DNA from: Nanobdellota archaeon
GTDB taxonomy: Archaea; Nanobdellota; Nanobdellia; SCGC-AAA011-G17; UBA489
Reading direction: 5' to 3'
Length of the DNA: 64,000 nt
Assembly: GCA_030699455.1 (NCBI GenBank)
Contig: JAUYMN010000008.1
Location: forward strand, 6,271 to 70,270
The notes under the pieces are model-generated. The model was not told the DNA's origin. It searched no databases and was given only the letters and a program-made list of their open reading frames with translations. This document shows, in pieces, positions 460 to 44,847 of the stretch. The position numbers were made by a program, and so were the translations under genes. Positions within the stretch are counted from its first letter, which is position 1. Each line of letters opens with the position of its first letter.

Positions 460-780
460 ATGGGTCTGTTTAAATATTTGGAGCTCAATGACGGGATGCG
501 CATATTTGGAGCCGACTTAGACGCCATCATTATAGCAAGGCATATTAGTGGCAGAGATCACAATCACAGAGAAGCTGTTTTTGAGATTGTCGGATTGGAT
601 GAAATGGATAGGCTGTATCTGAGCTATAAGGATAAACTCTTCCGATTAATTCCTGAGCGTAGCATTTCAATTGGAATAAGGGATAATGATTGCATGACCA
701 ATCCACCAAAAAGAGTTGTTGTTCCTATGCACTTTGTTGCACCAAGAAGTTACAGTCTTAATTGTCGAAGGTATCACTAA
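460..780 (+). CDS. hypothetical protein
   Basis: 106-aa ORF with no competing ORF; no motif recognised. Confidence 0.4.
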   Translation: MGLFKYLELNDGMRIFGADLDAIIIARHISGRDHNHREAVFEIVGLDEMDRLYLSYKDKLFRLIPERSISIGIRDNDCMTNPPKRVVVPMHFVAPRSYSLNCRRYH

Positions 781-782
781 TC

Positions 783-1433
783 TCACCATCGTTCAACATG
801 AACATTTTCTTTAGGCACATTAAGTTCTTCTAGGTGTGAAACTACTGATTTTACAAATTCAGGCAGACCACAAATATAAAAATCTGAATTCAGTTTTATA
901 TTTTTTAAAATCATCCCCTTACTGATTCTCCCTGTCTGACCATTCCATTTTTCTTGGGTAAGAGTTATTATTTTGTTTATGTTTAGTAATTCCAGCTTAT
1001 CCCTAAATAATATATCTTCCTGTTTTTTAACAGAGTAAATAAGTGTGATGTCTTTGTCTTTTAACGACTGCATCATCGTCATTAGGGGCGTTATTCCTGT
1101 GCCTGCGGCTATAAACACCACTGGATTTTGAGTTTCCTTGAGTGTAAAAAGACCAAAAGGACCCTCAATATCTATCGTGTCATTAATATTTTTGCAAAAG
1201 AGGAAACATGACATTTTACCATTTGGCACTTCATTTAATGTTATTGTAATTTCTTCTGTTGGCTGTTTAAACCAGTTGGATATAGAATATGCTCTTCTTA
1301 TAACAACTCCATCTTTTTTAGAAATTACTGTTATAAATTGTCCAGGTTTATAGGTAATTGATTTGTCTAGCTTTAATCTGAATGTTTTTGTGTATGGTGT
1401 TTCATTAATAATTTTGGTGATTCTAGCTTTCAT
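783..1433 (-). CDS. FAD/NAD(P)-binding oxidoreductase, ferredoxin-NADP reductase-like
   Basis: RAYSIS (RxYS FAD motif) and AAGTGITP (NAD(P) motif). Start moved to MKARITK at 1433 so it abuts the NAC stop rather than overlapping it. Confidence 0.7.
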   Translation of the reverse strand: MKARITKIINETPYTKTFRLKLDKSITYKPGQFITVISKKDGVVIRRAYSISNWFKQPTEEITITLNEVPNGKMSCFLFCKNINDTIDIEGPFGLFTLKETQNPVVFIAAGTGITPLMTMMQSLKDKDITLIYSVKKQEDILFRDKLELLNINKIITLTQEKWNGQTGRISKGMILKNIKLNSDFYICGLPEFVKSVVSHLEELNVPKENVHVERW

Positions 1434-5573: not shown

Positions 5574-5672
5574 ATTGCACATAAGCCCTGTTAAACTCTC
5601 CCGTTAGGGATTGAATTTTAGTGCAATGTTCCGTAGCGAAGCGGAGGAAAAATTCAAAGTAAAAAAATCGGC
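5574..5672 (+). repeat. junction-core repeat with conserved hairpin
   Basis: attgcacataagccctGTTAAACtctcccgttaggga, then stem ttgaatttt (5611-5619) / aaaattcaa (5649-5657). The loop begins agtgcaa, as in copy 30615-30722. Confidence 0.65.
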
Positions 5673-20625: not shown

Positions 20626-20733
20626 TATTGTATTGGTTTAAACTGCTTTAAAAAGGTATTGAAAAGGTCCGTAGGACGACGCCCCTCTCTCTTTTTGTTT
20701 CTTTTTTCTAAAAAGAAAAGTAAGCAATCAAAA

Positions 20734-20832
20734 AATTGAATATAATTTCTGTTATGCTCTCCGAACGAAGTGAGAACCTGCAAGGCGTGGCAAAATCTCT
20801 TCGAGATTTTGCGTTCAGAAGGTCGCTCGGTG
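20734..20832 (+). repeat. junction-core repeat, full unit (core + hairpin + right arm)
   Basis: aattgaatataatttctGTTATGCtctccgaacgaagtgag, then a 10-bp stem gcaaaatctc/gagattttgc (20790-20812), then right arm gttcagaaggtcgctcgg. Confidence 0.7.
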
Positions 20833-20853
20833 GTGGGACGGTGCGCGTTTTAT

Positions 20854-21609
20854 TTAATATGGACTCTTCCAAAAATAATTGAAATATTTCATGAAACTTT
20901 CTTTAATTCTGTCAGATTCTAATACAAATGCAAAAGATTGTTTTCCCCACAAAATTTGTACTACTTTATTTCCAAAAATAATTGCTACCATGGGCACATA
21001 CATATCTTTTGGGAGTGAGCAATATTTATAGTAAGCTTTCTTGTGTTGGCTTATTTTTTCTGGTTCTAAATCTTTCAAATAAGTACCATAACTAACTAAA
21101 TCATTCATCATATGCTTTTTTTTAATTCTTCGTTCCATCCAATGTTCAAACCATACTTGTAAATTTTCAGGAACTGTTTTGTAGTTTTCAAAGCTATTTC
21201 CTCCTAACCAAAATGATTCTTTATGCTCAAGTATCTCTTCAAAAAGCGTTTTGATTGCCTCATTGCCCCTAAAAATTTCTGCCATTATTTCAGGTTTGGA
21301 GAGTTCAAAAAGTTTTTTTATGTCGGGAATTTGTTCTTCTAGTTCCTTTAATCTTTTCTCTTTTCCCTTTATTTCTTCAAGAAGCTTATTTGGGTGTGTG
21401 CATTGGTAAGTTCTCTTGCCTTTTTCAATAGTATAAGAAACAAGCCCTGCTTCTATTAATTTATTCAGAATGTCATAAATATTTCTTCGTTCTATTCCTG
21501 TTTTTTCTTGTATTTTGTTAATAGTGGATATGCCCAATTCTAGAACTGCCGAATAAACTTTGATCTGCCCATCGCTTAAACCTAATTCCTTCAGATTTTT
21601 AAGTATCAT
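20854..21609 (-). CDS. TrmB-family transcriptional regulator (paralog 2)
   Basis: MILKNLKELGLSDGQIKVYSAVLELG...RRNIYDILNKLIEAGLV. Start trimmed to 21609. Confidence 0.75.
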   Translation of the reverse strand: MILKNLKELGLSDGQIKVYSAVLELGISTINKIQEKTGIERRNIYDILNKLIEAGLVSYTIEKGKRTYQCTHPNKLLEEIKGKEKRLKELEEQIPDIKKLFELSKPEIMAEIFRGNEAIKTLFEEILEHKESFWLGGNSFENYKTVPENLQVWFEHWMERRIKKKHMMNDLVSYGTYLKDLEPEKISQHKKAYYKYCSLPKDMYVPMVAIIFGNKVVQILWGKQSFAFVLESDRIKESFMKYFNYFWKSPY

Positions 21610-21697
21610 ATGGTGTTGTATAATACCACATATATTTAAATATTTAGTCATATCAATACTATTAACAAGTAACAACAAATGTAAGGAGGTAATCAAA

Positions 21698-22147
21698 ATG
21701 AACATAAAAAAAATTTATGAAGCAGGCAAAAAAGGATTGGCGGGAATTGTTTTAGCAGGTACTCTCGCGTTAAATGGTTGTGTAGATCACCAAGAGCATA
21801 CAACTCAAGAATTGCCTTATTTTGCAGTTAAAAACATAGAAACAGTTTTGGCAATGGATCATGGAGAACGACCAAGACATGTAGAAAATGGTGTGGTTTA
21901 CACGCCAATGGTAAGATTTGACACTCAATTTCCACAATTGGAAGGAGTAAAAGCACAACAAGGAGATAAAACATACATTTTTCGGTCAAGCATGTATGAT
22001 GGACGTTTAACTGAAATAAGCAACACAGAAGGCGAAGCATATCTAAGAGTTGGAATGCTACCGGAAGAATTTAATTCCTTTAACGACGGAGTAGGAAAAG
22101 GTGCTGACACAAGCTATGCCAAGTTTATAGAAGAATTTAACAAATAA
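21698..22147 (+). CDS. lipobox lipoprotein, hypothetical
   Basis: MNIKKIYEAGKKGLAGIVLAGTLALNGC has a signal peptide and lipobox Cys. SD-like aaggagg upstream; divergent from TrmB paralog 2. Confidence 0.6.
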   Translation: MNIKKIYEAGKKGLAGIVLAGTLALNGCVDHQEHTTQELPYFAVKNIETVLAMDHGERPRHVENGVVYTPMVRFDTQFPQLEGVKAQQGDKTYIFRSSMYDGRLTEISNTEGEAYLRVGMLPEEFNSFNDGVGKGADTSYAKFIEEFNK

Positions 22148-22190
22148 AGATAAATTTTTATTTTTTTATTTTTTAACGCGCCGTCCACGT

Positions 22191-22207
22191 GGGGGGGGGG
22201 GGGGGGG
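22191..22207 (+). repeat. G17 homopolymer
   Basis: 17 consecutive G in an AT-rich genome, directly after the right inverted-repeat arm 22175-22188. Confidence 0.9.
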
Positions 22208-22232
22208 TTGGTAGGGAGAAGAGTGACCTTCT

Positions 22233-22378
22233 GAATTACGCCTAACCCTTGTTATACAAGGGTGAGGAGCGAAGCGACGAAAGCGTAGCGTCCCCAAGTG
22301 AGCGAAGCGAACGCAGCGTAAGGCACAGGGACACGTTCCATCAAGTGAGCACAGCGAACCATCCAGAACAAGAATCAA
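22233..22378 (+). repeat. junction-core repeat (variant) plus GC-rich iteron block
   Basis: gaattacgcctaacccttGTTATACaagggt places GTTATAC in the loop of a 6-bp stem. Two 17-mers follow: aagtgagcgaagcgaac (22296-22312) and aagtgagcacagcgaac (22343-22359). Confidence 0.65.
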
Positions 22379-22442
22379 GGGGACACTCTCTTGATGGTGC
22401 TTACACACTTGTAACTTTTTATTGAGAAAACGGGGGCAACTA
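22379..22442 (+). repeat. left arm of 64-bp perfect inverted repeat
   Basis: Exact reverse complement of 24939-25002. Includes the TAG stop of the TrmB gene. Confidence 0.95.
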
Positions 22443-23162
22443 CAATGGCTTTGCTATACCCCACATCACATTAAAATAATTTGTAAATGCTTTAGCACTA
22501 TCTTCACTTATGATTTGTATTGTAGTAATCTCTTTCTCTTGAATGATACCAATAATAACAACATCTTCATAGATCATATAACCCACTCGTGCTATAAAAC
22601 TTTTTGGTAGAACACGAATATTATCTTTTTTCATTATTGAGAGAAGATCTTTTACTTCTGGAATATTAGGCTGCACTGTTTTCATTTTCATCTTTTTTGC
22701 TTTTTGCTCAATGAATTTTCTAGAAAATTTTAATGCTTTAAAGAAAAATAATCCCCCGCCAACCCAGTAAACATTCTTATTTGATTTTACTGCTTCTTCA
22801 ACTACTGCTTTTGCACCCTCTAATCCAACAAAAACGTTGATTTTTGGTGATTTTTCTTCTGATTCATAAAAACTTTTTAGGTTTGGAAGAGCATCATTGA
22901 GAATTTTGTTTTTTTCTTCAAGAAATATCTTAAGACTTTCTGGATTTGTGGCTTGAAAGTATTTCACTCCATTTTTTATTTTGAAATTGACAATTCCTCT
23001 GCGAAGAAGTATATTTAGGTTGTCATAGATTGTTCTTCGGTGTACTTCTGTTTCTTTAGATAATTGAACAGCAGTAGATTCTTTTTTCTTAAGAAGAGCG
23101 AGGTAAATTTTTGCTTCTGTTTCTGAAAGTCCAATTTTTCTTAGTGAGTCTTGTAAATCCAT
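22440..23162 (-). CDS. TrmB-family transcriptional regulator (paralog 3)
   Basis: LRKIGLSETEAKIYLALLKKK...HRRTIYDNLNILLRRGIV. Confidence 0.8.
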   Translation of the reverse strand: MDLQDSLRKIGLSETEAKIYLALLKKKESTAVQLSKETEVHRRTIYDNLNILLRRGIVNFKIKNGVKYFQATNPESLKIFLEEKNKILNDALPNLKSFYESEEKSPKINVFVGLEGAKAVVEEAVKSNKNVYWVGGGLFFFKALKFSRKFIEQKAKKMKMKTVQPNIPEVKDLLSIMKKDNIRVLPKSFIARVGYMIYEDVVIIGIIQEKEITTIQIISEDSAKAFTNYFNVMWGIAKPL

Positions 23163-23262
23163 TCTAACATATATTATTCTTAGTTTTATTTAAACTTTTC
23201 GTTATTGGTGTGGAAATCCCCACACATTGATTTATATTCTTAAATATGACTACTAAAGAATA

Positions 23263-23940
23263 ATGAACACCCAACTAGATAATCCATTTAGAGAAGAGCA
23301 AATTGCAGAGATTTATTCTAGGCATAGCCATAAATATCATGCTCATCAAAGAGCATTTGAAGCATTTAGGACACTTATCCCTCTAGATAGCCGAGTTTTA
23401 GAAATTGGCGTAGGCACAGGTGCTTTTACAGATTTATTGCTTTCTGTTGGATATGATGTTAAAGGTATTGATAGATCAGAAAAAATGCTGAAAAGAGCCT
23501 CTGAACGAGTTCGTGCTTTATCTGAACATTGCGATTTGTTGGATCATGATTCTTCCGGAAAATATGATGTTGTGGTTTCGCATAGTGGTGGATTTACATT
23601 CAAAAGAGGAAAATTTGAGACGTATTATCAAGATGAAGACAATTTAGAGAAAGCACTTCAAAAAGTTCATAATGTTCTTGTTGATGAAGGAAGATTTCTT
23701 GTAGATAAAGGAGAACATGAATCCGAGATAGATTTAGGAGATGGAACAATATTCTCCGTAGAACAAGAAGATAGAGAAAAATCTCGGATTTATACTTATA
23801 CTTTCAAGCAAGGAGATAGAGAGATTACGAAGCAACAAAGACGTTTAGTATTTTTTCCAGAAGAATTGCAAAGAATGAGTTCTCCGTATTTTAATTGGAA
23901 TTTTGCAAATAAACTTTGGATAATTGGTGAAAGGATATGA
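23263..23940 (+). CDS. class I SAM-dependent methyltransferase
   Basis: VLEIGVGTGAFT motif I and DVVVSH. Confidence 0.8.
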   Translation: MNTQLDNPFREEQIAEIYSRHSHKYHAHQRAFEAFRTLIPLDSRVLEIGVGTGAFTDLLLSVGYDVKGIDRSEKMLKRASERVRALSEHCDLLDHDSSGKYDVVVSHSGGFTFKRGKFETYYQDEDNLEKALQKVHNVLVDEGRFLVDKGEHESEIDLGDGTIFSVEQEDREKSRIYTYTFKQGDREITKQQRRLVFFPEELQRMSSPYFNWNFANKLWIIGERI

Positions 23941-24941
23941 TGAATCAATTAAGACAATCATTAAGAGAATTTAAGAGTGATTTTGATAGAAAAATTGTCG
24001 CATATTTTGATGCAAAAATTGGTGAACAAGCAAATCCGGAGTTGAAAGAAGTTTTTGGTCATCTGAAAGATTATGTTTTAGCAGGGGGGAAACGTCTTAG
24101 ACCGAATATTCTTTACAGAATAAATCAAGAATTCAAACAATTAGATGGAATTGATAATGTTCTTCTTGCTTTTGAGTTTCTTCATAATTCTACGTTAATT
24201 GATGATGATGTGATAGATGAACATGATACAAGAAGAAGCAGAGCAACTCTTCCAACAGTTTATGGTGATAGAAATTATAGAGGAGATTTTGCTGCTTTGT
24301 TAAGCGCTAACTTACTAAGAAATGCAGGAATTGATTTAATTGTAAATTCAGAATTATCAAGAGATTTTCAAAGAGAATGTGGGTTGGCGTATCAAGACAT
24401 AGGAAGAAGCATAGATTTAGCACAAATTCTCGATTTAGAATATAGGGGAAGATTGAATTTATTAGAAGAAGATTATATTGCTCAAGCAGATTTAGTGGCA
24501 GCAAGATTTATCGCTTATATGTTTCAACTCTGCACACCTGAAAAATACAAAGAAGAATTTTATCAAGTAGGAAGAAATTTAGGGATTGCATTTCAGTTAG
24601 CAGATGATTTAATGGATATAGATGCAACAAAGCAGAAAGGTCGTGGTCTTGGCTCAGATATTAGAGAAGGAACACCAACATTATTATCAATTTATGCTTC
24701 AGAAAGATTAGAGGGTGTAGATAGAGAAAAGTTTAGAGGATTATTTGGCAAAAAAGATTTAACAGAGGATGAATTACAATGGATTATTACTCAATATGAA
24801 AACAGTGCAGTCATAGAAGATTCAAGAGAAAGAGTTAGAGATTACATTAATAGAGCAAATCACATTTTATCAGATGTGGGAATTCCTCAAGATCATTGGA
24901 TAGTCGCATTTGGTGAGTATAGTTTACAGCGATCTCATTAG
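23937..24941 (+). CDS. polyprenyl (trans-isoprenyl) diphosphate synthase
   Basis: First DDxxD (LIDDDVID) and second DDxxD (LADDLMD). ATGA overlap with the methyltransferase gene. Confidence 0.85.
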   Translation: MMNQLRQSLREFKSDFDRKIVAYFDAKIGEQANPELKEVFGHLKDYVLAGGKRLRPNILYRINQEFKQLDGIDNVLLAFEFLHNSTLIDDDVIDEHDTRRSRATLPTVYGDRNYRGDFAALLSANLLRNAGIDLIVNSELSRDFQRECGLAYQDIGRSIDLAQILDLEYRGRLNLLEEDYIAQADLVAARFIAYMFQLCTPEKYKEEFYQVGRNLGIAFQLADDLMDIDATKQKGRGLGSDIREGTPTLLSIYASERLEGVDREKFRGLFGKKDLTEDELQWIITQYENSAVIEDSRERVRDYINRANHILSDVGIPQDHWIVAFGEYSLQRSH

Positions 24942-25002
24942 TTGCCCCCGTTTTCTCAATAAAAAGTTACAAGTGTGTAAGCACCATCAAGAGAGTGTCC
25001 CC
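24939..25002 (+). repeat. right arm of 64-bp perfect inverted repeat
   Basis: Exact reverse complement of 22379-22442. Includes the TAG stop of the prenyl synthase gene. Confidence 0.95.
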
Positions 25003-25027
25003 CATCATTTTTAGTGTCCCGAGTAAT

Positions 25028-25130
25028 ATGTCGTATAATCGCTGTTAAACTCCCCGAACGGAACGAAGTGAGGTGAAAGCGCAACGTGGTCGACCGAAGG
25101 GAGAGGTTCGGTGCTCGCCGAAAGTTTGTT
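25028..25130 (+). repeat. junction-core repeat, full unit without payload
   Basis: atgtcgtataatcgctGTTAAACtccccgaacggaacgaagtgag. ccgaac pairs with gttcgg and aaac with gttt. Ends at the next GTTATAG (25131). Confidence 0.65.
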
Positions 25131-25200
25131 GTTATAGTAGTTGTTGAAAAATATATTATTAACTTTCAAGTAGTAAAAGAAACGAAAGATTTATAAAGTA
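25117..25200 (+). repeat. cassette 5' flank repeat A, copy 1
   Basis: About 90 percent identical by eye to 30709-30792. Contains TTGTTGAAAAATA, AACGAAAGAT and the TTTATAAAG TATA box. Identity stops 3 nt after the TATA box. Confidence 0.85.
25190..25198 (+). promoter_or_regulatory. TATA box (TTTATAAAG)
   Basis: About 25 nt upstream of the ATG at 25219. Confidence 0.5.
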
Positions 25201-25218
25201 TAGCAAATAACTATCAAT

Positions 25219-25605
25219 ATGAAAATGAATAAAACTTTAACTAGCATCGTTTTGGCAGGAGCTTTAGCTCTTAGTGGCTGTAGTGGAAAAGTCGACGATT
25301 CTAGATATGATTTCAAGGGAAAACTTGGAGATGAACAGGTAGAATTTATACGACAAGGCAATTTTTTGGTCTCCTCTGTAGATGATGGGTTATATTTAAC
25401 AGTTACAAAAGCAGATGGAAAAACTATAACTTATATCGACAGAGGAAATGATTTGAAACTAGATGAAGTAATAATCGGATACGAAGTTTATATAAATGAT
25501 GCTGTTGGACAAAACGCATTAGAATTGGCACAACAACAATTTGATGGTTATTTGACAAAAATTCTTGAATATAAACAGCAAAAAGCTGTTGATGCAATCA
25601 AGTAA
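25219..25605 (+). CDS. lipobox lipoprotein, hypothetical
   Basis: MKMNKTLTSIVLAGALALSGC has a signal peptide and lipobox. Confidence 0.6.
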   Translation: MKMNKTLTSIVLAGALALSGCSGKVDDSRYDFKGKLGDEQVEFIRQGNFLVSSVDDGLYLTVTKADGKTITYIDRGNDLKLDEVIIGYEVYINDAVGQNALELAQQQFDGYLTKILEYKQQKAVDAIK

Positions 25606-25763
25606 ATCTTTCGTTCTATAATTTTTATTTTTCAACAATTTCATTAAAATTTTGTTAGGCAAAGTTACGAAGTAATTTTGTGAAAGTTTTCTGTTATGAT
25701 TTTAACGAAGATAACAACATTAGAATTTTTGGTTTTAACCTCTGTGAGGCGAGCCCCGAATTG
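25606..25763 (+). repeat. cassette 3' flank repeat B, copy 1
   Basis: Starts immediately after the stop codon and is near-identical to 31127-31283. ATCTTTCGTT and TATTTTTCAACAA are inverted copies of elements in repeat A. Contains a degenerate core at 25693. Confidence 0.85.
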
Positions 25764-25856
25764 AACTTAATGCCTGTTATATTCTTGAACGGAACGAAGT
25801 GTAATGAGACGAGCAAAGCGAAGAGTTTTGCGTTAGCAAGATTGTACATAATCGCT
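25759..25856 (+). repeat. junction-core repeat, full unit without payload
   Basis: aattgaacttaatgcctGTTATATtcttgaacggaacgaagtg, hairpin gcaaa/tttgc, and right arm gcgttagcaagattgtacataatcgct abutting the next GTTATAT. Confidence 0.65.
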
Positions 25857-25921
25857 GTTATATTCTTCGAATGAAATGAGGCCAAAATCTGAAGGATTTT
25901 GAGTTTCTGATGGCACAAATT
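25841..25921 (+). repeat. junction-core repeat, left arm of the hicBA cassette
   Basis: attgtacataatcgctGTTATATtcttcgaatgaaatgag, hairpin caaaatc/gattttg (25883-25901), then the left inverted-repeat arm tttctgatggcacaaatt (25904-25921). Confidence 0.65.
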
Positions 25922-25929
25922 ATATAAAT
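25921..25929 (+). promoter_or_regulatory. TATA box (TATATAAAT) for hicB
   Basis: About 26 nt upstream of the ATG at 25951, directly after the left inverted-repeat arm. Confidence 0.45.
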
Positions 25930-25950
25930 CATTACATATGGAATAATATT

Positions 25951-26163
25951 ATGAAATATAGAATAACAATGGAACAAGACGAAAAAGGCATTTATGTTGT
26001 AGAATGTCCAATTCTTCCTGGATGTATATCTGAAGGTTTAACTAGAAAGGAGGCCTTAGATAATATTAAAGATGCTATTAAAGGATATATAGACAGTCTA
26101 AAAAAGCATAATGAGCCAATACCTCTATCAATTGATGAGGAAATGGTGGAAGTAAATGCCTAA
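25951..26163 (+). CDS. hicB: HicB-family antitoxin
   Basis: 70 aa, YVVECPILPGCISEGLTRKEALDNIKDAI (UPF0150/HicB fold pattern). Overlaps the hicA start. Confidence 0.8.
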   Translation: MKYRITMEQDEKGIYVVECPILPGCISEGLTRKEALDNIKDAIKGYIDSLKKHNEPIPLSIDEEMVEVNA

Positions 26164-26385
26164 ACTTCTTTCGAATCTTTCTGGCTTAAAACTTGTAAAA
26201 TTATTTTCTAAATTAGATTATGAATAGATCATCAAACCGGCAGTCATATAATATTAAGACAGAATAAATATCCATTTAGAAGGTTAACTATACCAAAACA
26301 TAAGTCACTAGCAAAAGGCACATTAAGAGCAATTATAAAACAATCTGGACTAACAAAAGAGGAATTTTTAAAGTTTCTAACCTAA
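26156..26385 (+). pseudogene. hicA: hicA toxin, frameshifted
   Basis: MPKLLSNLSGLKLVKLFSKLDYE then TAG at 26225. The homologous remainder (GSHIILRQ...TIPKHKSLAKGTLRAIIKQSGLTKEEFLKFL) continues in the -1 frame from 26224 to 26385. Confidence 0.7.
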
Positions 26386-26459
26386 TTGTGCCATCAGAAA
26401 TTGTACATAACTTCTGCTATATTGTCTGGGGTTTATCCCCAGATTAACCCGTTAGGGTT
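26384..26459 (+). repeat. right arm of the hicBA cassette plus degenerate junction core
   Basis: aattgtgccatcagaaa is the inverted partner of 25904-25921. Then ttgtacataacttctGCTATAT, hairpin tctgggg/ccccaga (26425-26443), and aacccGTTAgggtt. Confidence 0.6.
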
Positions 26460-26661
26460 GAAGTATGACGCAAGAACCAACATTAAGGAGTTTTGAACAA
26501 ATTGACCGTAACTGATTAGCTGGCGAGACTAAGCCACAGTTGCTAATAGGTTGCCTTTCATAATGGGATGCTGTATGGCTTCAGAAAATTACAAGAGAAG
26601 CTATTGAAGGGAATAAGGAGAAAAGTACGAAGCCGAGATTGATTTAGACATCATCTTTTGG

Positions 26662-27588
26662 CTAATTCCATTTGAGCATCTCATTATAAAATGCTTCTGC
26701 TTGTTTTTGATCAAATTTATCTGGGTCTCCTAAACACCTTGTTTCAACAAAATTCTTGTTCTCATCGTAAATGTTCCATATAACATACTTGTAGGTCTTT
26801 CCTATATCTCCAGTTTCAGAAATTATTGTTTTTTCAATGTATGCATTAACATTGCCCATTCCAAAGAAATAAGTGTAACCTCCGCAGTAGTACTTGTTAA
26901 GGTTTTCACCTTCTTTAGTTCCCTTTCTACAATTAGCAGATCCTTTTATTGTCCATCCATCATAAGTTTTCCCACTTATATCTGTGGTTTCATAAGGTGT
27001 TCCTTCATTGTGAAATTTCATTTCCACATTAATCTGTGGGCAATTAGATTTAAGGGTTTTTGAAAATTTCTCAGTACCTTTTTTGAATATACCTTCAAAC
27101 TGGTTATTTGATTTTGTTGTCAGATTGGTTTCAAAATTAGAACTACTCCCATAATGAATTTCTTGTTGATCTGAATTGTGTATCAGGTATAATGTAATTG
27201 CAATCACAAAAATCCACAAAAATAAATTTGAATGATCCATTCTAGATATCCTTACAAGATATGCTACCAAAACCAGTCCAACAGCTGTAAAGATAATGCT
27301 TGCCACATAATCAATAATTCCAAGATAATTAGCAAGAATAAATAGCACCCATATCGCACCAGTATTTATTACTCCCCAAAACAAAAAGGATTTGTCAACA
27401 ATAAATTTTTGTTTTGTAGTAAATATCTTTGCAAATTTTGCTAATATTGTTAATCCAAAACCCATAAAAATCAGCTGAAAGAAACTGTTCTCAATGTTTA
27501 AGTAATTTAAGAGATAACCCAAAACATACAATGAAATAGAGTGAATGACAATCCAAATTAAAGACCATTTCAAACTAAAGTTTTTCAT
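26662..27588 (-). CDS. membrane protein with extracytoplasmic C-terminal domain, hypothetical
   Basis: 308 aa with about 5 N-terminal TM helices, then a soluble Cys-containing domain. Confidence 0.5.
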   Translation of the reverse strand: MKNFSLKWSLIWIVIHSISLYVLGYLLNYLNIENSFFQLIFMGFGLTILAKFAKIFTTKQKFIVDKSFLFWGVINTGAIWVLFILANYLGIIDYVASIIFTAVGLVLVAYLVRISRMDHSNLFLWIFVIAITLYLIHNSDQQEIHYGSSSNFETNLTTKSNNQFEGIFKKGTEKFSKTLKSNCPQINVEMKFHNEGTPYETTDISGKTYDGWTIKGSANCRKGTKEGENLNKYYCGGYTYFFGMGNVNAYIEKTIISETGDIGKTYKYVIWNIYDENKNFVETRCLGDPDKFDQKQAEAFYNEMLKWN

Positions 27589-27960
27589 TTTTGTTGCGTT
27601 TCATATTCTGGAATTCTTCTTTTCACTTGCTTCCGCCCACATGAACCCAATTTTTTTTGAAGATAGAAATCATCTTTTCTCTAGCTCCATAATCTGTCTT
27701 AATTAAGAGATATAAAAAGTTTGTCTATGGATATTTTGCAAAGTTAAAGAATGGTATCACCTTTTTTCTTAAGAAAAAGAGTGGAAATGGGAGCAAACTC
27801 CTAAAAGGAGGTACCCACCATGAATGGCATTTGAGACAGCAAATGCCATTCAAGAGATATAACAATTATTACTAGTAAATTATTCCGTTCACATGATTTC
27901 TAAGTTTTATTCTATCCATAATGCCAAAATTGATAGGACGTTCGTACTTCAATGTATGTA

Positions 27961-28509
27961 TCAAGTAAAAATTTCCATAATTTTTTCAATAGAAATTTCT
28001 TGGTTAATTATGGATAAAAGAATTATTAAAAAAATAATAACAATGATTGATAGAATTATTTTTGATGCTATGGTTTTTCTTTCATATTTTTCTTCATTCG
28101 GCTGGTTTTTTTGTTCTATAGTTGGTGTTGGTTTTATGTAATCTCCTTTTTTAAATTTCTTAGTAAATTTTTCAATATCCCTATCCAATTGTTCATTCTT
28201 AAATTTTTTTTCTATTGATACTTTTTTTCTTCTGTTTTTTATTTTATTTATTCTGCCATAATCTCCATTGCATCCATGTTCTTCTGGAAGTCTGCAATTT
28301 TCACAATGAGATTCATCACAGTAATTACACACAAAAGGTATATGATTTATTTCTTTTTCACAAGAATCACACTTATTTTTAGGTCTTGGTTTTCTTCTCC
28401 GCCCCATTCTTCTTTGGTTCCAAGCATGTTCATCAAAATCCTCTTCTTCATACTCTTCCCTATCATTCTCATCTTCTTCTCTATCCCATCTCTTAGAAAA
28501 AGTTCCCAT
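27961..28509 (-). CDS. AN1-like zinc-finger protein with C-terminal membrane anchor
   Basis: CDSCEKEINHIPFVCNYCDESHCENCRLPEEHGC is close to the AN1 pattern. Charged N-terminus and a C-terminal TM. Confidence 0.55.
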   Translation of the reverse strand: MGTFSKRWDREEDENDREEYEEEDFDEHAWNQRRMGRRRKPRPKNKCDSCEKEINHIPFVCNYCDESHCENCRLPEEHGCNGDYGRINKIKNRRKKVSIEKKFKNEQLDRDIEKFTKKFKKGDYIKPTPTIEQKNQPNEEKYERKTIASKIILSIIVIIFLIILLSIINQEISIEKIMEIFT

Positions 28510-28511
28510 TT

Positions 28512-29252
28512 TCAGCAGAAATTTTGTGTTACGTAGATATCATACCAATTTCCTTCTGAACTCTCAAGAACAGAAACTCCAATTCCATGGTTCCTATGGT
28601 GGGGAGTAAGTATATTTTCTCTATGTCCTGGGCTACTCATCCAACCATTGACTATATTTTCGGCTACTTCTCCCATTGTACAAGGATGGGAATGAGTAGC
28701 ACCTACAACGATCAGTTCTCTAGTGATGTCATAATAATCCAATGCAAGATTCTCAGCTCCCTCGGATAAATAGGTTTCGTATTGTTGTGTAGTAATTTCA
28801 TAAATGCCATATTCACCTTCTTCTATCTCAGTTTCTTCTGGATAGTATATTGTATCGATTGGAACTGAACAATAATAATTTGCTTGTTTGTATCTATAGT
28901 CAAATCTATTTCCTTCAAGATCTTCATGTTCAAAATGTTTGTTTTTGGCCATATAGTCACTATACTTTCTTGCAATTTGGTTTAATTCTTCATCCCATTT
29001 TAACATATTAAGTTTGGCATTCTTTCTTTCAACCCTTACCTTCCTATGTATCAACAATTCTAATTCTTCAACATTGATATCTTCACATTGAATATTGCTT
29101 TCAAAAGAGTTGGTTTCATCTTTATAGCTTTCTGTGCTAATATCATCAAAATCCAAAAAATAAATACCTACCAAAAAAATAGAACCAATAACTAAAAGTG
29201 GAATAATCCGGCTTGTTGGAATTATAACTAAAAAGCCTTTCTTTCTATACAT
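28512..29252 (-). CDS. CAP/SCP/PR-1-like domain protein, membrane-anchored
   Basis: N-terminal TM, with KWDEELNQIARKYSDYM, GAENLA and NGWMSSPGHRENIL motifs. Confidence 0.75.
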   Translation of the reverse strand: MYRKKGFLVIIPTSRIIPLLVIGSIFLVGIYFLDFDDISTESYKDETNSFESNIQCEDINVEELELLIHRKVRVERKNAKLNMLKWDEELNQIARKYSDYMAKNKHFEHEDLEGNRFDYRYKQANYYCSVPIDTIYYPEETEIEEGEYGIYEITTQQYETYLSEGAENLALDYYDITRELIVVGATHSHPCTMGEVAENIVNGWMSSPGHRENILTPHHRNHGIGVSVLESSEGNWYDIYVTQNFC

Positions 29253-29475
29253 TCTGCCATTGACGGGATATAGGTCTCTTTTAAATTTTTAGGTCCTGGG
29301 TAACTGATTAGCTACTTTTGAAACGGAGTTCAATTCAGCCTTCTTTTGTAGAATTTTTGTATTATACGGACAAAAAGGATGTTAAATTAGCCTCTATTTG
29401 ACATAGCTAATCAGTTACAATTGACCAAAAGATTTAAATATGTGTAATCACATTTCTACACATAGGTGATCAAAA

Positions 29476-29700
29476 ATGACTAATTTAACATTAGCAATTC
29501 CAGAAGATTTGCATGAAAAAATGAAACATCACTCTGAAATAAGATGGAGTGAAGTAGTGAGAAAATCAATCTCTCAGAAGATTGAATTATTAGATGCAAT
29601 GAATAAAATTGCAAGTAAAAGTAAGTTAACAAAGAAAGATGTAGATGAAATCTCAAAGAAAATTAAAGCAGAAACATTTGATGAGTTAAACAAAAAATGA
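29476..29700 (+). CDS. vapB: VapB-like antitoxin (ribbon-helix-helix-like)
   Basis: 74 aa, LTLAIPEDLHEKMK N-terminus. ATGA overlap with the PIN gene. SD-like GGTGAT upstream. Confidence 0.6.
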   Translation: MTNLTLAIPEDLHEKMKHHSEIRWSEVVRKSISQKIELLDAMNKIASKSKLTKKDVDEISKKIKAETFDELNKK

Positions 29701-30116
29701 TCATCATTATTGATGTTAATGTTTTTCTTTCTGCTTTAATTAAGGATTCAACTTCAAGAGAAATTTTGTTAACATACGAGCAAGAATTTTGTTTTCCAGA
29801 GAGATCATTGCAGAAAATACGAAAGCATAAATCTCTTATTCAAAAGAAGTCTGAACTTTCTGATTTAGATTTTCTGAAGTTGTTTCATTCTTTATTAAAG
29901 TTTATCAGAATCATTCCTGATGAAGAATTATTAGATCAATGGGATGAAGCGATGAAAATAATGGCACACATTGATGAAGAAGATGTGACTTTTATTGCAG
30001 CAGCATTGAGTCAGAATAATGCAGTAATCTGGTCTGATGATAAGCATTTTGAGAAACAGGATAAAGTGTTTACACTAAAAACAAAAGATTTGGTCAATTT
30101 ATTTGAGAATAACTAA
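29697..30116 (+). CDS. vapC: PIN-domain toxin
   Basis: IIIDVNVFLSALI N-terminal acidic residue, EEDVTFIAAA, and WSDDKHF. Confidence 0.75.
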   Translation: MIIIIDVNVFLSALIKDSTSREILLTYEQEFCFPERSLQKIRKHKSLIQKKSELSDLDFLKLFHSLLKFIRIIPDEELLDQWDEAMKIMAHIDEEDVTFIAAALSQNNAVIWSDDKHFEKQDKVFTLKTKDLVNLFENN

Positions 30117-30156
30117 TTTCAAAACGCCTCTCTTTTCTTTGTTGGTTCTGAGTAAT

Positions 30157-30235
30157 ATTCAATATAATGCCTGTTATGTTCTCCGAACGAAGTGAGGACA
30201 AGCGAACGAAGTGAGTGAAGAGTTCAAAAAAGACT
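30157..30235 (+). repeat. junction-core repeat with duplicated iteron
   Basis: attcaatataatgcctGTTATGTtctccgaacgaagtgag. cgaacgaagtgag occurs twice (30184-30196, 30203-30215). Then the left inverted-repeat arm ttcaaaaaagact (30223-30235). Confidence 0.65.
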
Positions 30236-30280
30236 TTCTATGTGGTAATATATCTCAAAAGATATAAACTCCTTAAAAAT

Positions 30281-30595
30281 TTATCTTGGAGAATAAGGTA
30301 ATTGTGGGACAGAATATCGTGTTTTAAATTCTCTATTTATTCTTTCGATCTTGTTATGAATGTACTCCATTTGACCATATAGCCGACAATCTGCGATACA
30401 GTTCTCTTTACCACCACTATCTTGAAACGATTGGTGTGCTTCTTTGAAATCATTATCTAACATTTCTATAAGGGCGTCTAAACCATGGGCTGATATTTTA
30501 TGTTTCATAACTACTAATAAGTTACAAATTATATATAAATCTAACGGTTTTTCTATGGTTCTGACGGGCTTTCTCATGATAATTGAGCTTATCAT
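30281..30595 (-). CDS. hypothetical protein
   Basis: 104-aa ORF bracketed by the 13-bp inverted repeat 30223-30235/30604-30616. On the minus strand, ATTATATTC from the core lies about 27 nt upstream of the start. Confidence 0.4.
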   Translation of the reverse strand: MISSIIMRKPVRTIEKPLDLYIICNLLVVMKHKISAHGLDALIEMLDNDFKEAHQSFQDSGGKENCIADCRLYGQMEYIHNKIERINREFKTRYSVPQLPYSPR

Positions 30596-30614
30596 GATGC
30601 TACAGTCTTTTTTG

Positions 30615-30722
30615 AATTGAATATAATTTCTGTTAGTTTCTCCGAATGAAATGAGAACGAGATTTTAGTGCAACGATGCTGAAGGCAAAAATCTCGAGTT
30701 CTGGGCTTGCCGAAAATTCGTT
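30615..30722 (+). repeat. junction-core repeat, full unit without payload
   Basis: aattgaatataatttctGTTAGTTtctccgaatgaaatgag. Stem cgagatttt (30658-30666) / aaaatctcg (30688-30696) with loop agtgcaacg... and an extrahelical ag. Right arm gcttgccgaaaattcgtt. Confidence 0.7.
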
Positions 30723-30792
30723 GTTATTGTAGTTGTTGAAAAATAAGTTATTAACTCTCAAGTGGTAAAAGAAACGAAAGATTTATAAAGTA
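30709..30792 (+). repeat. cassette 5' flank repeat A, copy 2
   Basis: Partner of 25117-25200. Confidence 0.85.
30782..30790 (+). promoter_or_regulatory. TATA box (TTTATAAAG)
   Basis: About 29 nt upstream of the ATG at 30815. Confidence 0.5.
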
Positions 30793-30814
30793 ATTAGTTT
30801 TCGTAAGTATTACA

Positions 30815-31126
30815 ATGAAACTATATCAAAAAATTGCAACATATACATTTATTGGTGCTGCAAGTTTAGGATTATTTGGTTGTGATAAAAAAGATTCACA
30901 ACGAGCAACTGAACAACCATTACCAGCTGAAATGAGAACATATGAAGTTAGCCCATATGTATTTGGTAAATCTAAAATTAATTATGACCATTTACCAAAT
31001 CTAGGATGGTCGGACATGATTGGGGTAACTTGCGGAGATTTAGATGGTGATGGAGATTTAGAAGTGATTGTTGCAACAAAAGATGGATTAACAATTTACG
31101 AAAACAGAACAGAACAAAAAAGATAA
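30815..31126 (+). CDS. lipobox lipoprotein with FG-GAP-like repeat
   Basis: IGAASLGLFGC signal and lipobox-like Cys, plus CGDLDGDGDLEVIVATKDG. Confidence 0.6.
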   Translation: MKLYQKIATYTFIGAASLGLFGCDKKDSQRATEQPLPAEMRTYEVSPYVFGKSKINYDHLPNLGWSDMIGVTCGDLDGDGDLEVIVATKDGLTIYENRTEQKR

Positions 31127-31283
31127 ATTCTTTCGTTCTATAATTTTTATTTTTCAACAATTTCTTTAAATTTTTGTTAGACAAAGTTACGAAGTAATTT
31201 TGTGAGTTTTCTTTTATGATTTTAACGAAGATAACAACATTAGAATTTTTGGTTTTAACCTCTGTGAGGTGAGCCCCGAATTG
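31127..31283 (+). repeat. cassette 3' flank repeat B, copy 2
   Basis: Partner of 25606-25763. Similarity ends at gagccccgaattg, the last recognisable array sequence. Confidence 0.85.
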
Positions 31284-31478
31284 TGTTGAACAATATATAT
31301 GCGAAGAAGCACGAATTCCTATATTTTAGACGTTATGAAGGCATTATTTGGAAGATTGAGTTAGAAAAACTGTTTTCTTTTATGTGTAGTAAAAACAACT
31401 TATTTTTGACTTTTAACCGCATTTTCTTCGATTTTTTTGAATTAAGTTTTTTTAAGAGTTTATAGTAACTGGTTTTAA

Positions 31479-32184
31479 TGGCTTTGGATGTGCTTTATAA
31501 CATGAAAAGAGAGTTGTTTAGGAGGAAGCTGTCTCCAAGAACTGTTAAAACATACCTGCTGTATGTTAGATTATTTCTTCGAGCAAATAAAGACATCAAG
31601 AAACTCGCGAATCTGCTTTAGGCTTCTTCGCAGTATTTACTACAATTCTTGATTAAATCTAACCATCAATTCTCACTTAAGTCTTTTTTATCAACCGCCA
31701 TCATAACTTTCATAAAATCATTAGGAACCAGAAGTTTATCAAACATAGATGACGTTAACTTTACAGCTGGTGAAAAGGCTTAAATAATTTTGCGGGATGG
31801 ATTGAGTACACTGAAGCGCTACAATAATGGTCTACTCAATTTTAATCTTTATGGGAGAAGAAATTCAGAATCAATACACTAGTGGGGTATGAACTTAAAA
31901 TTATTGCTAAAGGCAATGCGCCTGGAATTTGACAGGTTAATTCTACAACATATGCTCCTGACGAAATTGCAGTTTCTGCCATGAAGTATGTTTAAGATGC
32001 TATTGAAAATGATGGAGCATTAATGAGGCAGTCTGATAGAATTACTACAATAGACAGGCCTATGATTAAAATTGTTTGCTCTGATAGTTACACATTAGTG
32101 CACCCAGCAACTATTGAAGATATGTTAAAGTACAGAAGAGGGCATGGGACAATGGCAAGAAAGCTGGCTCCATCAAGACCATAA
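31479..32184 (+). pseudogene. tyrosine recombinase/integrase, heavily decayed
   Basis: N-terminal SAM-like domain signature KLSPRTVKTYLLYVRLFL, then an in-frame TAG at 31620-31622. The frame continues (FLIKSNHQFSLKSFLSTAIITFIKSLG) to a TAA at 31782. Downstream fragments in shifted frames resemble catalytic-domain blocks (LLNFNLYGRRNSES; LKIIAKGNAPG; RRGHGTMA). No ORF of 60 aa or more across 31.47-32.19 kb. Confidence 0.6.
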
Positions 32185-32189
32185 CAGGC

Positions 32190-41208: not shown

Positions 41209-42162
41209 TTAACGAAGTAAATAGATAAGTCGAGTTATTAGTAGTCGCGGGCTGAATACCTCGTTACCTCGGTACTTACACCCCGACCCTATCAAACCTG
41301 TATTCTTCAGGTACTCTTAGTCTATTTTCGCGGCGGGTTTCGAGCTTAGATGCTTTCAGCTCTTATCCCTTGGCGCGTAGCTGCCCAGCCTGCCCTGTCG
41401 GACAACTGGTAAACCAGTGGCGCCGAACCTTTGTTCCTCTCGTACTAAAAGATCCTTCCACTCAGACTTTGACACCCCCAGTAGATATCATACAAACTGT
41501 CTCACGACGTTCTTAACCCAGCTCACGATCCGCTTTAACCGGTGAACACCCGTACCCTTGGAAGCTTCTGCACTTCCAGGATGCGAAGAGCCGACAACGA
41601 AGTAGCAAGCAGCGCCGTCGATCTGAACTCTTAGGCGCTACAACTCAATTATCCCCGAGATAGCTTTTCTGTCATACCTAGCCCTCATCAATAAGGACAT
41701 AGGGGTTCGCTAGACCAGACTTTCGTCTCTGAGTACCTTAACGGTTGGAACTCAGTTAGGCAAGCTTTTGCTCTTGCACTCTACTTTGGATTTCTAAACC
41801 AAATGAGCTTACCTTTGGGCCCCACTGATACCTTTTCAGCGGGGTGCCGCCCCAGCCAAACTACCCACCAGTCGATGTCCTCGTATACGAGTTAGTGATA
41901 CAACACAAAGAAAGTGGTATTACACGGTCGCCTACGATTAGCTCTAACGAACTAACCATCAAACAGCTCCCACTTATACTATATACTAAGTATTATACCA
42001 CAACGACAAGCTGTAGTAAAGTTCTACGGGGTCTTCGCTTCCCACTGGAGGTCACTGGCCTTCACACCAGTATAGTATATTCAGAGGACACTAGTTTGGG
42101 ACAATGGGACCCTCGTTACACCATTCATGCAAGCCGACATTCAATCGGCAGGGTATTGCGCT

Positions 42163-42855
42163 CAATTTGTTACTACATTATTTCTAATGTGACTAAACCA
42201 TTTCTGTTTAGCTCCTTACATCGCTGCAAGGATCGGACTATATCATCACTTGTTACCAAGTGTTTGGCGTGTAGTCTCTGAGGATTCTAGATATTTGAGT
42301 CGCGGTCTGCGATTCATTTTAGAAATTAGGTTTGCTATTTTATCAAGCCCTTCTTTTGTTAAGTGTTCTTTATTGTTCATCATGTGAATTACGTCAGAAA
42401 AAACTTCAAAGTTATTTTTCTTTACTGTGTGTAAAGGATATTTCTTAAAAAAAGTTATTATTTTATTTAAGTTATTTAATCCTCTAACACGAAATTCTTT
42501 TCTGTCGTTGTTGTTAATTCCAACTGAACCAAATCCAAAATAAGATTTAATCTTATGGAGAACTTGTTCACTTCTTTCATGTTGAACAACCCTAAACTCT
42601 GGAAGTACTTGCCATCCGAGTGTCATTTTTTCAAGCTTATTGATTGCTATATGAAAACAACCCTCGCCGTCAACAAATCCTGATATCCAGTTTGCATCTA
42701 GTCTTTCCTGCTGATTGTCTGCACTCACCACATTTTCACCTTTTGTTTTTGATATTAATAAACATCATTACAAATTAATCGAAGTTAATTCGAAAGGTAG
42801 TGTGAGATACTCAGATGTTCCAGCATATAGCCAAATTTTACTAAGGCAACCTTTC
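42163..42855 (-). mobile_element. group I intron at 23S position about L1931 (E. coli numbering)
   Basis: Exons rejoin as CTCTTAAGGT|AGCGCAATACC. The 5' exon ends in U and the intron ends in G. P1 forms UAAGGU with GCCUUA, with a U-G wobble at the splice site. Contains a LAGLIDADG ORF. Confidence 0.75.
42246..42731 (-). CDS. LAGLIDADG homing endonuclease (single-motif)
   Basis: 161 aa, WISGFVDGEGCF. Lies inside the rRNA intron. Confidence 0.85.
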   Translation of the reverse strand: MVSADNQQERLDANWISGFVDGEGCFHIAINKLEKMTLGWQVLPEFRVVQHERSEQVLHKIKSYFGFGSVGINNNDRKEFRVRGLNNLNKIITFFKKYPLHTVKKNNFEVFSDVIHMMNNKEHLTKEGLDKIANLISKMNRRPRLKYLESSETTRQTLGNK

Positions 42856-43670
42856 ACCTTAAGAGAATCATAGTTATTCCCGCCGTTTACCTGTCCTTAG
42901 TTCCCTTGAAAGGGAGTTTGAGATACAGGCACTGGGCAGATGTCACGTTCCATACACATCCTTGCGGACTTGCGAAACGCTACGTTTTTATTAAACAGTC
43001 GGAGCCCCTTGATCTTTGAACCCTGTATCCGCATATTAAATATACAGACGCAGGGACCCTTTATACCGAAGGTACAGGGCTAATCTGTCGAATTCCCTAA
43101 ACTAGTTTAAACCTTCATGCCTTGGCTTTCTCTGCCAGCCCACCAGTGCTGGTTCTTGGTACGGATATATATGATCCTTGCACATTCCCTTTTCACTGAT
43201 TCCAGGCCTCTACCAAACGATCCACAGAACCGCCATTCCTCCTTTAATTCGGGTCTCATCATTACGATACTCACCGAATTTATAGAAGTTAGCAAGTACG
43301 ACGATACTTGTTGGTATAGCCTAAAATGTCAGAAATATGCCTTGCGTTGCCGCGCGTACATATATAGTACAGGAATCTTAACCTGTTTCCCCTTCCCACT
43401 AGACCAATTAGGACTTGGGTTAGGACCGACTTACTCTTCGCTGACGAACATTGCGAAGAAACCCTTGGGCTTTCGGCATTACGGATTCTCACCGTATATA
43501 GATCCTACTACTACCAGGATTCTCATCCCTACACGGTCCACCAATTCTTACGAAAAGGCTTCTGCCCATGCAAGGCGCCTGCCTACCTCACTCCTTACGG
43601 AGGACTATGGTATCGGTAATCCACTTAGCCCCGTCCATTTTCAGGGCACGTGACCTTGAATGGTGAGCTG

Positions 43671-43705
<35 letters not shown>

Positions 43706-44847
43706 TACCTCCCATCTGTCTCGGGTGACATACACCTTTCGCCCTTTAACACTTAGCGGATATTTTGGGACCTTAACCATAGAGGGGGTTGTTCCCCCAT
43801 AGAGACGCAAGTTTACCCCGCGCCCCTTTTTCCCGACTTCTACGATGCCTGCACATTCGGAGTTGAACAAGTGGGCGAGGAGTTTCCTCCCCAAACCCAC
43901 AAATCCGTGGCTCTACCTCACAGGCGACCTCCGTCGAGACTAAACTAAGGCTTATTTCGGCAGGAACCAGCTATTACCGATCTCGATTGGCTTTTCACCC
44001 CTAACCAACAGTCACACGAACGCATGCACACAGCACCGCTTCGGACTTCCACAAACCGTCAGGTTCACTTCATCCTGCTGTAGGTTAGATCGACCGGTTT
44101 CGGGTAACTTCCCTGTGACTTTTGGCGCATTAACACCATGTCCCTGACAAAAAGCTGCGGACAATTGCTTTAGCTATGGGTGCGTGATGATATCACTTAC
44201 CCTTGCCACAGAAAAGAACTCCCTGGCTCGTTATTCGAAACGCACGATACAACCCCGAAAGGCCGTATCTCTCAATAACTATTAGGTTTCAGGCTCTTTT
44301 GACTCCCTGTAATGGGTTCTTTTCAACGTTCCATCACTGTACTATACTCTATCGGACTTGGGTTATATTTAGAGTTAGGAGTTGATGCCTCCCAGATTCA
44401 GACGCAATTTCCAATGCATCCTACTCAGGATACTTGTACATCTTTTGTTCTACTTCTACGGGACTATCACCCTCTATGGTACTGCTTTCCAGCAGACTTT
44501 GAATCAAACAAATAAGACTAAAAACAAGTCCTGCAACACCACATCTCTTAACCATTTCTGGTAAGATTCAGTTTGCTCTCTGCTGTGTTCAATCGCCTTT
44601 ACTGACAGCATCTCAATTGATTTCTTTTCCTCCAGGTACTGTAACGCTTTACTTCCCTGGGTGAGTTTTCCTTTCGGAATGTCATAAGACAAGAAGTCTC
44701 ATTCAGGAATCTATGGTTCAATGGCTGCATGCGCCTCGCCATAGCATTTCGTAGCTTGCCACGCCCTTCATCACTACCCAAGCCAAGTCATCCACCTAAT
44801 AGTGTAATAGGTCTATTTACTTCTTTCATACTATAATTATATGAAAA

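Follow-up and report, generated by a model that had tools for sequence, protein, structure and literature searches.

A conserved three-hairpin module adjoining Xer/dif-type cores in DPANN archaea

The archaeal dif site is a single chromosomal copy in the replication terminus, and the attC site of integrons is formed on a folded strand, where R''(RYYYAAC) and R'(GTTRRRY) pair with each other at the two ends and L''/L' and extrahelical bases lie between them. The dif site of P. abyssi, which was tested in vitro in XerA assays, reads ATTGGATATAA-TCGGCC-TTATATCTAAA (PMC2958812), and in haloarchaea dif is located upstream of a xerA operon (PMC11840125). Archaeal integrons and clusters of attC sites without an integrase were reported by Ghaly et al. 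2022 (PMC9668308). Folded DNA is further represented by the mini-hairpin motifs GCGNAGC and GCGNNAGC of Hirao and co-workers, which melt at about 76 C as DNA, whereas the corresponding RNA tetraloop, r(GCGAAAGC), has a Tm of 39 C (PMC13037366). The locus described here carries repeated units in which a dif-like core is joined to a module of three conserved hairpins.

Composition of the units

The window, i.e. the whole stretch of 64,000 nucleotides that was analysed, belongs to an archaeal MAG of 770 kb with 34% G+C, 28 contigs and a completeness of 83%. It encodes an archaeal LSU rRNA and an RNase P RNA. The LSU rRNA match at 41218-44819 on the minus strand spans 3602 nt compared with a model of 2987 positions, so that this gene probably contains insertions of about 600 nt, either an intron or an expansion. 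Seven junction units were found in the window, all on the plus strand and starting at positions 5574, 20735, 25028, 25760, 25841, 30157 and 30616 (U1 to U7). Further copies in the source genome lie on contigs C4 (two), C16, C23, C28 and others.

The hairpin reported in the earlier note is the central helix, P2, of a conserved three-hairpin module that follows an Xer/dif-type core. An alignment of the six best copies gives the order of the parts as core (ATTGnAnATAA-N6-TTAnnnTC), hairpin P1, 5' arm of P2, AGTGCAAYG, hairpin P3, 3' arm of P2 with its A-run, and AGT. The module is about 75 nt long and comprises the right arm of the dif-like core, P1, the 9-bp helix P2 around the invariant AGTGCAAYG and the mini-hairpin P3, and the closing AGT. 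The core has the consensus ATTGnAnATAA-N6-TTATATTC and closely resembles the dif of P. abyssi. Inverting the inner 8 bp of the left arm GAATATAA gives the right arm TTATATTC, and no fewer than five arm variants are used in both positions, left and right. As in archaeal dif, the core is an imperfect inverted repeat with 11-bp arms, a 6-bp spacer and TAA-N6-TTA, and this pattern is enriched in the window. The units and associated features of the window are as follows.

5574-5666, plus strand: U1, full unit; covariance model score 90 bits, E 6e-16; fold computed
5574-5601, plus strand: dif-like core of U1, ATTGCACATAA-GCCCTG-TTAAACTCTCC
5599-5610, plus strand: hairpin P1 of U1, TCCC-GTTA-GGGA
5611-5619 and 5649-5657, plus strand: helix P2 of U1, ttgaatttt / aaaattcaa
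5620-5660, plus strand: interior and end of the U1 module, with loop AGTGCAATG at 5620-5628, P3 at 5629-5648 (inside P2) and AGT at 5658-5660
20660-32189: accessory island with U2 to U7, supported by comparison with the interval between rnpB and the ZIP gene in same-genus relatives
20735-20820, plus strand: U2, derived unit with core and P1 intact, followed by CCTGCAAGG; 29.9 bits, E 0.009
20790-20812, plus strand: 10-bp hairpin of U2, built differently, GCAAAATCTC-TTC-GAGATTTTGC
25028-25105, plus strand: U3, decayed unit with core and P1 recognisable; the loop reads AGCGCAACG and the P2 pairing is gone
25760-25839, plus strand: U4, core and P1-like hairpin; weak model match, E 0.10
25841-25910, plus strand: U5, derived unit with core and P1 intact; aligned, 34.3 bits, E 2e-4
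25883-25901, plus strand: reduced P2 of U5, CAAAATC-TGAAG-GATTTTG; the AGTGCAAYG loop is gone
30157-30229, plus strand: U6, core and P1-like hairpin; weak model match, E 0.085
30616-30643, plus strand: dif-like core of U7, read directly, with left arm ATTGAATATAA (30616-30626), spacer TTTCTG (30627-30632) and right arm TTAGTTTCTCC (30633-30643)
30639-30656, plus strand: hairpin P1 of U7, TCTC/GAGA with a loop of 10 nt; the right arm shares its outer end with the 5' strand of P1
30658-30696, plus strand: helix P2 of U7, cgagatttt (30658-30666) / aaaatctcg (30688-30696)
30667-30687, plus strand: interior of P2 of U7, with AGTGCAACG (30667-30675) and P3 TGCT-GAA-GGCA (30677-30687)
30697-30699, plus strand: closing AGT of U7, the conserved module end
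31484-31591, plus strand: remnant of an XerA-paralogue gene, N-terminal 36 codons; tblastn with the recombinase from contig C28 of the source genome (G000), 50% identity, E 2.5e-6

The two stems on which the earlier note was based, in U7 and U1, were located correctly, and both loops open with agtgcaa (from 30667 and 5620). The further stems that it cited at 20790-20812 and 25883-25901 are present with the given sequences; the copies holding them are the derived variants U2 and U5. The 'extrahelical ag' at 30697-30698 is likewise where it was placed and turned out to be the start of a conserved, unpaired AGT, present after the stem in almost every copy, with pairing beyond this AGT being peculiar to U7. 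The decayed U3 heads a lipoprotein cassette that is paralogous to the cassette after U7.

Several kinds of hairpin module can follow the same dif-like core. A further core in the window, ATTGTACATAA-CTTCTG-CTATATTGTCT (within 26400-26470; model match E 0.097), is followed by the hairpins GGGGTTTATCCCC and CCCGTTAGGG, which differ from P1, P2 and P3. About 40% of the units (L049, L065, L053, L046 and others) carry a 95-nt 'module A' that lies between the left arm (ATTGnATATAA-CATC) and TG|TTA, and taking it out restores the 11-6-11 core. Module A is a three-way junction with a covarying outer stem of 10-12 bp, e.g. GGATTAACCGA/TCGGTTAATCC or GCGATTAAGAG/CTCTTAATCGC, which encloses a hairpin with a GAA loop, ATTTGGRTGGAG, and a hairpin with the loop CTGCAAG. 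In addition, a T-rich palindrome, TTTTTGTTTCTTTTTTCTAAAAAGAAAAG, recurs at 20690-20722 of the window and downstream of many units in other genomes, often after a tract resembling GCCGCCGCC; judging by its appearance, it is either a terminator or a further junction module that the units share.

Comparative test of the folded module

A covariance model built on six copies from the source genome was used to search this genome and related MAGs, as the earlier note had suggested. It returned 16 matches in the source genome, where at least 12 copies were counted, and matches in 24 of 61 relatives. Across the order, about 150 copies were found in 78 of 240 genomes, often at contig ends.

The proposal of a structure-recognised DNA or RNA element is supported by this larger sample, in which all three hairpins covary strongly. 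Between U7 and U1, P2 differs at four of nine positions, and all four differences are compensated, which agrees with the original observation of preserved pairing under changed sequence. In the structural alignment of 101 copies, the covariation score was 0.581 compared with 0.227 after shuffling and at most 0.163 when the partner was slid. Pairing was kept in 96.1% of the cells and in 76.3% of those in the shuffles, none of which (0/500) reached the observed value. Changes on both sides of a pair were found in 296 cells compared with 87 in the shuffles and affected 10 of the 13 pairs. A perfect 9-bp P2 is present in 73 of the 101 copies and comprises 12 compensated sequence types.

The earlier note had named palindromes of A/T runs, common throughout the genome, as an explanation that would remove the case for structure. 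This alternative fails: the loop-proximal half of P2 is indeed an invariant T-run/A-run, and the outer five or six pairs covary around a loop that consists of an invariant 9-mer and a covarying mini-hairpin.

In P1, all four pairs covary (UA/CG/GC and CG/UA), and the loops are of the types GNNA, GNA or GA...GA, i.e. GTTA, GATA, GAA or longer loops closed by tandem G.A. The short P1 loops are GTTA in 20 copies, GATA in 14, GCTA in two and GTCA in one. P3 has covarying stems of 3-6 bp with a mean length of 3.93 bp compared with 1.99 bp for shuffled partners (152 copies, parsed around the loop); its loop is GAA in 117 of these 152 copies and its closing pair C-G in 135.

Single-sequence folding energies were modestly better than those of shuffled sequences (z -0.8 to -2.7). 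These values are unremarkable, and the evidence for the structure is comparative. The alignments were fitted by the covariance model, which introduces some bias towards the structure, and the conclusion is robust to this bias in view of the controls, both slid and shuffled, and of the compensated types, which are discrete.

Island, module boundaries and linked recombinases

In same-genus relatives, the interval between the RNase P RNA gene (rnpB) and the gene of a ZIP transporter measures 22-950 nt and holds unrelated small insertions or nothing, which identifies the 11.5-kb array in the window as accessory. These intervals (L249-L257) are a hot spot in the genus at which several assemblies break: they are empty in G007 and G002, and contain a HicAB-like pair in G005, while G008 and G003 have a gene for about 300 aa there. 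The empty site of the relatives has no dif-like core, so that the island as a whole did not enter via such a site. No unit was detected in the eight same-genus genomes at E<=1e-4, two of which gave marginal matches near E 0.01. The distribution of the units is patchy, and the island is mobile.

Beyond the genus, the MAGs that contain true units are labelled Woesearchaeota, Pacearchaeota, Nanoarchaeota and Aenigmatarchaeota. True units with 47-76 bits were also found on contigs deposited, with the binning as submitted, under Methanosarcinales, Thermoplasmatales, Methanocellales, Portnoybacteria and Patescibacteria (contigs L140, L183, L191, L195, L204, L135, L161, L167, L192, L152 and L184). 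These occurrences in methanogen, Thermoplasmatales and CPR bins reflect either mis-binned DPANN contigs or transfer.

The module is a discrete block that re-assorts with both flanks, as the similarity between copies ends sharply on both sides. On the left, 539 pairs of copies with the same right arm and P1 were compared, and in 323 of them identity stops 1-2 nt ahead of the G of GTTA. This break falls within the core spacer, the place where an Xer-type enzyme would exchange strands. On the right, copies sharing P3 and the 3' arm of P2 lose identity 3-5 nt past P2 in 738 of 889 pairs (3 nt in 426, 4 nt in 200 and 5 nt in 112). Six clear chimeric copies combine P2 arms of different types with a junction in the conserved P2 loop, which means that exchange is not limited to the core spacer.

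Many units are linked to a tyrosine recombinase gene. An XerA-like gene lies downstream of the units and in the same orientation in 17 of 18 cases, at a distance of 0.17-5 kb within the flanks examined. In the window, the gene remnant at 31484-31591 occupies the same place: it follows U7 in the same orientation and ends the array. The linked genes fall into two supported clades, both separate from the housekeeping XerA near orc1, and their clustering in the tree required 5 label changes compared with 11.2 in shuffles (0/500). Tree and synteny thus identify the unit-linked enzyme as an XerA paralogue distinct from the housekeeping XerA. The linked recombinases have 271-277 aa and score 223-260 bits with the XerA model NF040815 (cut-off 220). 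With TIGR02249 they reach 197, 218 and 189 bits, split in two stretches and below the cut-off of 265, and they have no integron-integrase (IntI-specific) domain.

No second site was found just downstream of the recombinase genes, and some unit-bearing genomes have a single Xer gene far from the units (G058). On contig C28, a unit and the gene of the XerA paralogue are separated by a 170-aa ORF (549-1061, plus strand) without an NCBIfam match. In each of the four near-closed genomes (G025, G143, G058 and G017), the presumed housekeeping xerA is located 9-26 kb from the main orc1/cdc6, which is a conserved origin-proximal synteny. As for the units themselves, the closed genome G025 has one copy at 174 degrees from orc1, and the two copies of G143 are at 142 degrees. 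The source genome, which is 83% complete, showed no canonical dif with full palindromic symmetry elsewhere.

Readings of the module and comparison with known systems

The best explanation, held with middling confidence and derived from sequence comparison, is that the unit is a junction of gene-cassette arrays in DPANN archaea and that the module is a DNA-level accessory part of an Xer-type recombination site. An XerA-type tyrosine recombinase, usually the dedicated paralogue encoded just downstream of the array, would exchange strands in the 6-nt spacer. Such an exchange would re-assort left arms and upstream cassettes against a constant right-hand module; neither a cassette circle nor an alternative junction was seen. 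When unpaired, the top strand would fold into mini-hairpins of high stability (C-GNA-G and C-GNNA-G types) and so make the two sides of the near-palindromic core unequal. The fold could then serve as a handle for polarity and control, either for the recombinase or for a partner protein that reads the AGTGCAAYG loop, a role comparable to that of the folded integron attC or the accessory arms of cer/psi.

Whether the module acts as DNA or RNA is central to this explanation, and the evidence leans towards DNA. P3 and the short P1 variants have the features that define DNA mini-hairpins, namely a GNA/GNNA loop, a C-G closing pair and a short G/C stem, which suggests a function as DNA. Alternatively, the module could be a structured RNA, either a small RNA or a processing or insulator element in read-through transcripts, and an L7Ae-type protein might bind the tandem G.A of P1. 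We consider this unlikely. An RNA would account for the three covarying helices and for the invariant single-stranded 9-mer in the internal loop, and U1 folded as RNA forms the same helices. The tandem GA/GA internal loops of long P1 variants fit RNA and DNA equally. The same applies to the wobbles: G.T mismatches outnumber A.C mismatches by 42 to 23 in 157 copies, so that G.U-type wobbles are tolerated more than A.C, with p ~0.02 uncorrected for relatedness, and this strand asymmetry is weak and only suggestive, being strong in one set of copies and absent in the other.

Against an RNA stands the search with Rfam 15, which assigned no family at its gathering score to the units in the whole window and gave only chance-level results at E<=10 for 30560-30830. 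Conservation begins at the core spacer, to the left of which the sequence varies and no conserved promoter is present; the cassettes have their promoters downstream of the unit. The units are oriented at random with respect to the genes beside them, as upstream ORFs have the same orientation in 51 cases and the opposite one in 39, and downstream ORFs in 46 and 46. Furthermore, the GAA triloop and the GYYA/GNYA tetraloops are DNA mini-hairpin motifs and not GNRA or UNCG, and the RNA z-scores are weak (-0.8 to -2.0). Taken together, the lack of an Rfam match, of a conserved promoter and of an orientation bias indicates a DNA-level accessory element with moderate confidence.

Another possibility is a DNA repeat, selfish or structural, in which case the module would merely accompany the dif-like core without taking part in the recombination chemistry. 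It could be a priming signal for single-stranded DNA similar to ssiA/G4 origins, a boundary element for replication forks or Smc in the dif region, or a MITE-like hairpin block. The sharp module ends and the re-assortment with both flanks are consistent with such a repeat, as are the other hairpin modules that follow or interrupt the same core (the 26400-26470 core and module A) and the position of the single unit in G025 opposite orc1. In addition, mini-hairpins of the CCGAAGG/GCGAAGC kind are known in priming sites of single-stranded DNA and bind SSB poorly (PMC13037366), and sequences around archaeal dif form an Smc boundary independently of XerA and dif (PMC11840125). However, the module is always fused to the right arm in one orientation and is tightly linked to XerA paralogues, and neither terminal inverted repeats nor duplications of a target were noticed at its ends (TTA...AGT). 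No Rep or primase gene was noticed beside the units in a non-systematic look. A viral origin was rejected, since none of the 20 IMG/VR contigs matching the loop-plus-P3 pattern carries a true unit, which also speaks against a travelling repeat. Overall, a passive repeat of this kind appears rather improbable.

Oligo-T alone suffices for archaeal termination. A bidirectional transcription terminator that insulates the cassettes is a very improbable reading: P2 has T4-T5 at the end of its 5' arm and, opposite its 3' arm, T5-T6 on the other strand, and the units sit between genes of either orientation, but T5 runs are common in a genome with 34% G+C, and a terminator would not explain why the outer pairs covary, why AGTGCAAYG is invariant, why P1 and P3 are present or why the join to the dif-like arm is fixed.

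Several other candidates were rejected. The left arm ends in ATTGCAC, whose reverse complement is found in the loop as AGTGCAAT, which might indicate a pseudoknot, a guide similar to bridge RNA or a folded duplex arm; such pairing was discarded because positions 4-7 of the left arm vary (GCAC, GAAT, AGAC, GAGT and others) with a constant loop. The loop segment may possibly be an extra XerA half-site in duplex DNA. The left arm is not the TATA box of an RNA, as a start about 25 nt downstream would fall in P1 and many left arms are not TATA-like. The lack of regular spacing, of C/D boxes and of A-specific differences between copies excluded a CRISPR-like solitary repeat, a C/D-box sRNA and a DGR, respectively.

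If the module works within the site, as the preferred reading of an accessory part of a recombination site has it, this would be a second way of turning an Xer-type recombinase into a cassette shuffler, and would provide a well-defined and phylogenetically rich substrate of about 100 nt for studying how a DNA fold steers a tyrosine recombinase. The hosts have reduced genomes and depend on accessory genes. In DPANN MAGs, the covariance model marks variable islands and the junctions of cassettes, places at which assemblies are often interrupted, and could serve to catalogue the cassette cargo. If the module were an RNA, it would be a widespread and uncatalogued structured RNA of DPANN archaea.

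Among described systems, archaeal XerA/dif (Cortez et al. 2010, PMC2958812) matches the units in the sequence and geometry of the core and in the recombinases, which score as XerA with NF040815. The location of a unit upstream of an xerA-like gene resembles the arrangement in haloarchaea (PMC11840125), and the single unit of G025 lies 174 degrees from orc1. In contrast to dif, the units are present in many copies per genome, at least 12 in the source genome, and lie on an island that relatives lack; their linked enzyme is a paralogue and not the orc1-linked XerA, and the right arm is joined to a folded module that is conserved. The folded part is similar to the DNA mini-hairpins (PMC13037366), with P3 as C-GAA-G, often within GCGAAGC or CCGAAGG, and short P1 as C-GTTA-G or C-GATA-G, although these mini-hairpins are a physical motif and not a genetic system.

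Integrons share repeated structured sites of 60-140 nt that punctuate arrays of small swappable genes, compensatory changes that preserve the structure, an Xer-related tyrosine recombinase encoded at the array and a cassette boundary at G|TT. The unit is nevertheless not an attC: its arms lie 6 nt apart in an ordinary double-stranded 11-6-11 dif-like core, whereas attC is made by folding R''/R' and L''/L', and the AG that could recall an extrahelical base belongs to the conserved unpaired AGT after the helix. The left and right arms of the units are not kept complementary, and an attC-like folding of left on right arm across the 95-nt insert was rejected because the arm types are often non-complementary. 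The loop is invariant in the units and free in attC, and the loop motif was not found in the searched supplementary files of the archaeal integron paper (PMC9668308). The recombinases differ as well, since no IntI is present (TIGR02249 stays below its cut-off) and the linked enzyme is of the XerA type without the extra IntI domain. It is encoded downstream and co-oriented, whereas IntI lies upstream and divergent, and the cassettes here are of mixed gene orientation.

The units also resemble IMEX elements and the pdif modules of Acinetobacter, in which mobile DNA uses Xer-type sites and integrated units accumulate in rows, and the attP of CTX phage, in which a folded single strand is an Xer substrate. 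These systems rely on the housekeeping XerCD of the host, unlike the units; pdif sites alternate in orientation while all units here are direct, and the fold of CTX attP creates the core, whereas that of the units adjoins an intact core. More tentatively than the site reading itself, the XerA paralogues and their composite sites, each a duplex dif-like core with a strand-specific folded DNA module, might constitute an undescribed gene-capture system of DPANN archaea and an independent archaeal route from dimer resolution to cassette shuffling. In such a system, the fold rather than an IntI-type domain would provide the asymmetry and control that integrons obtain from attC.
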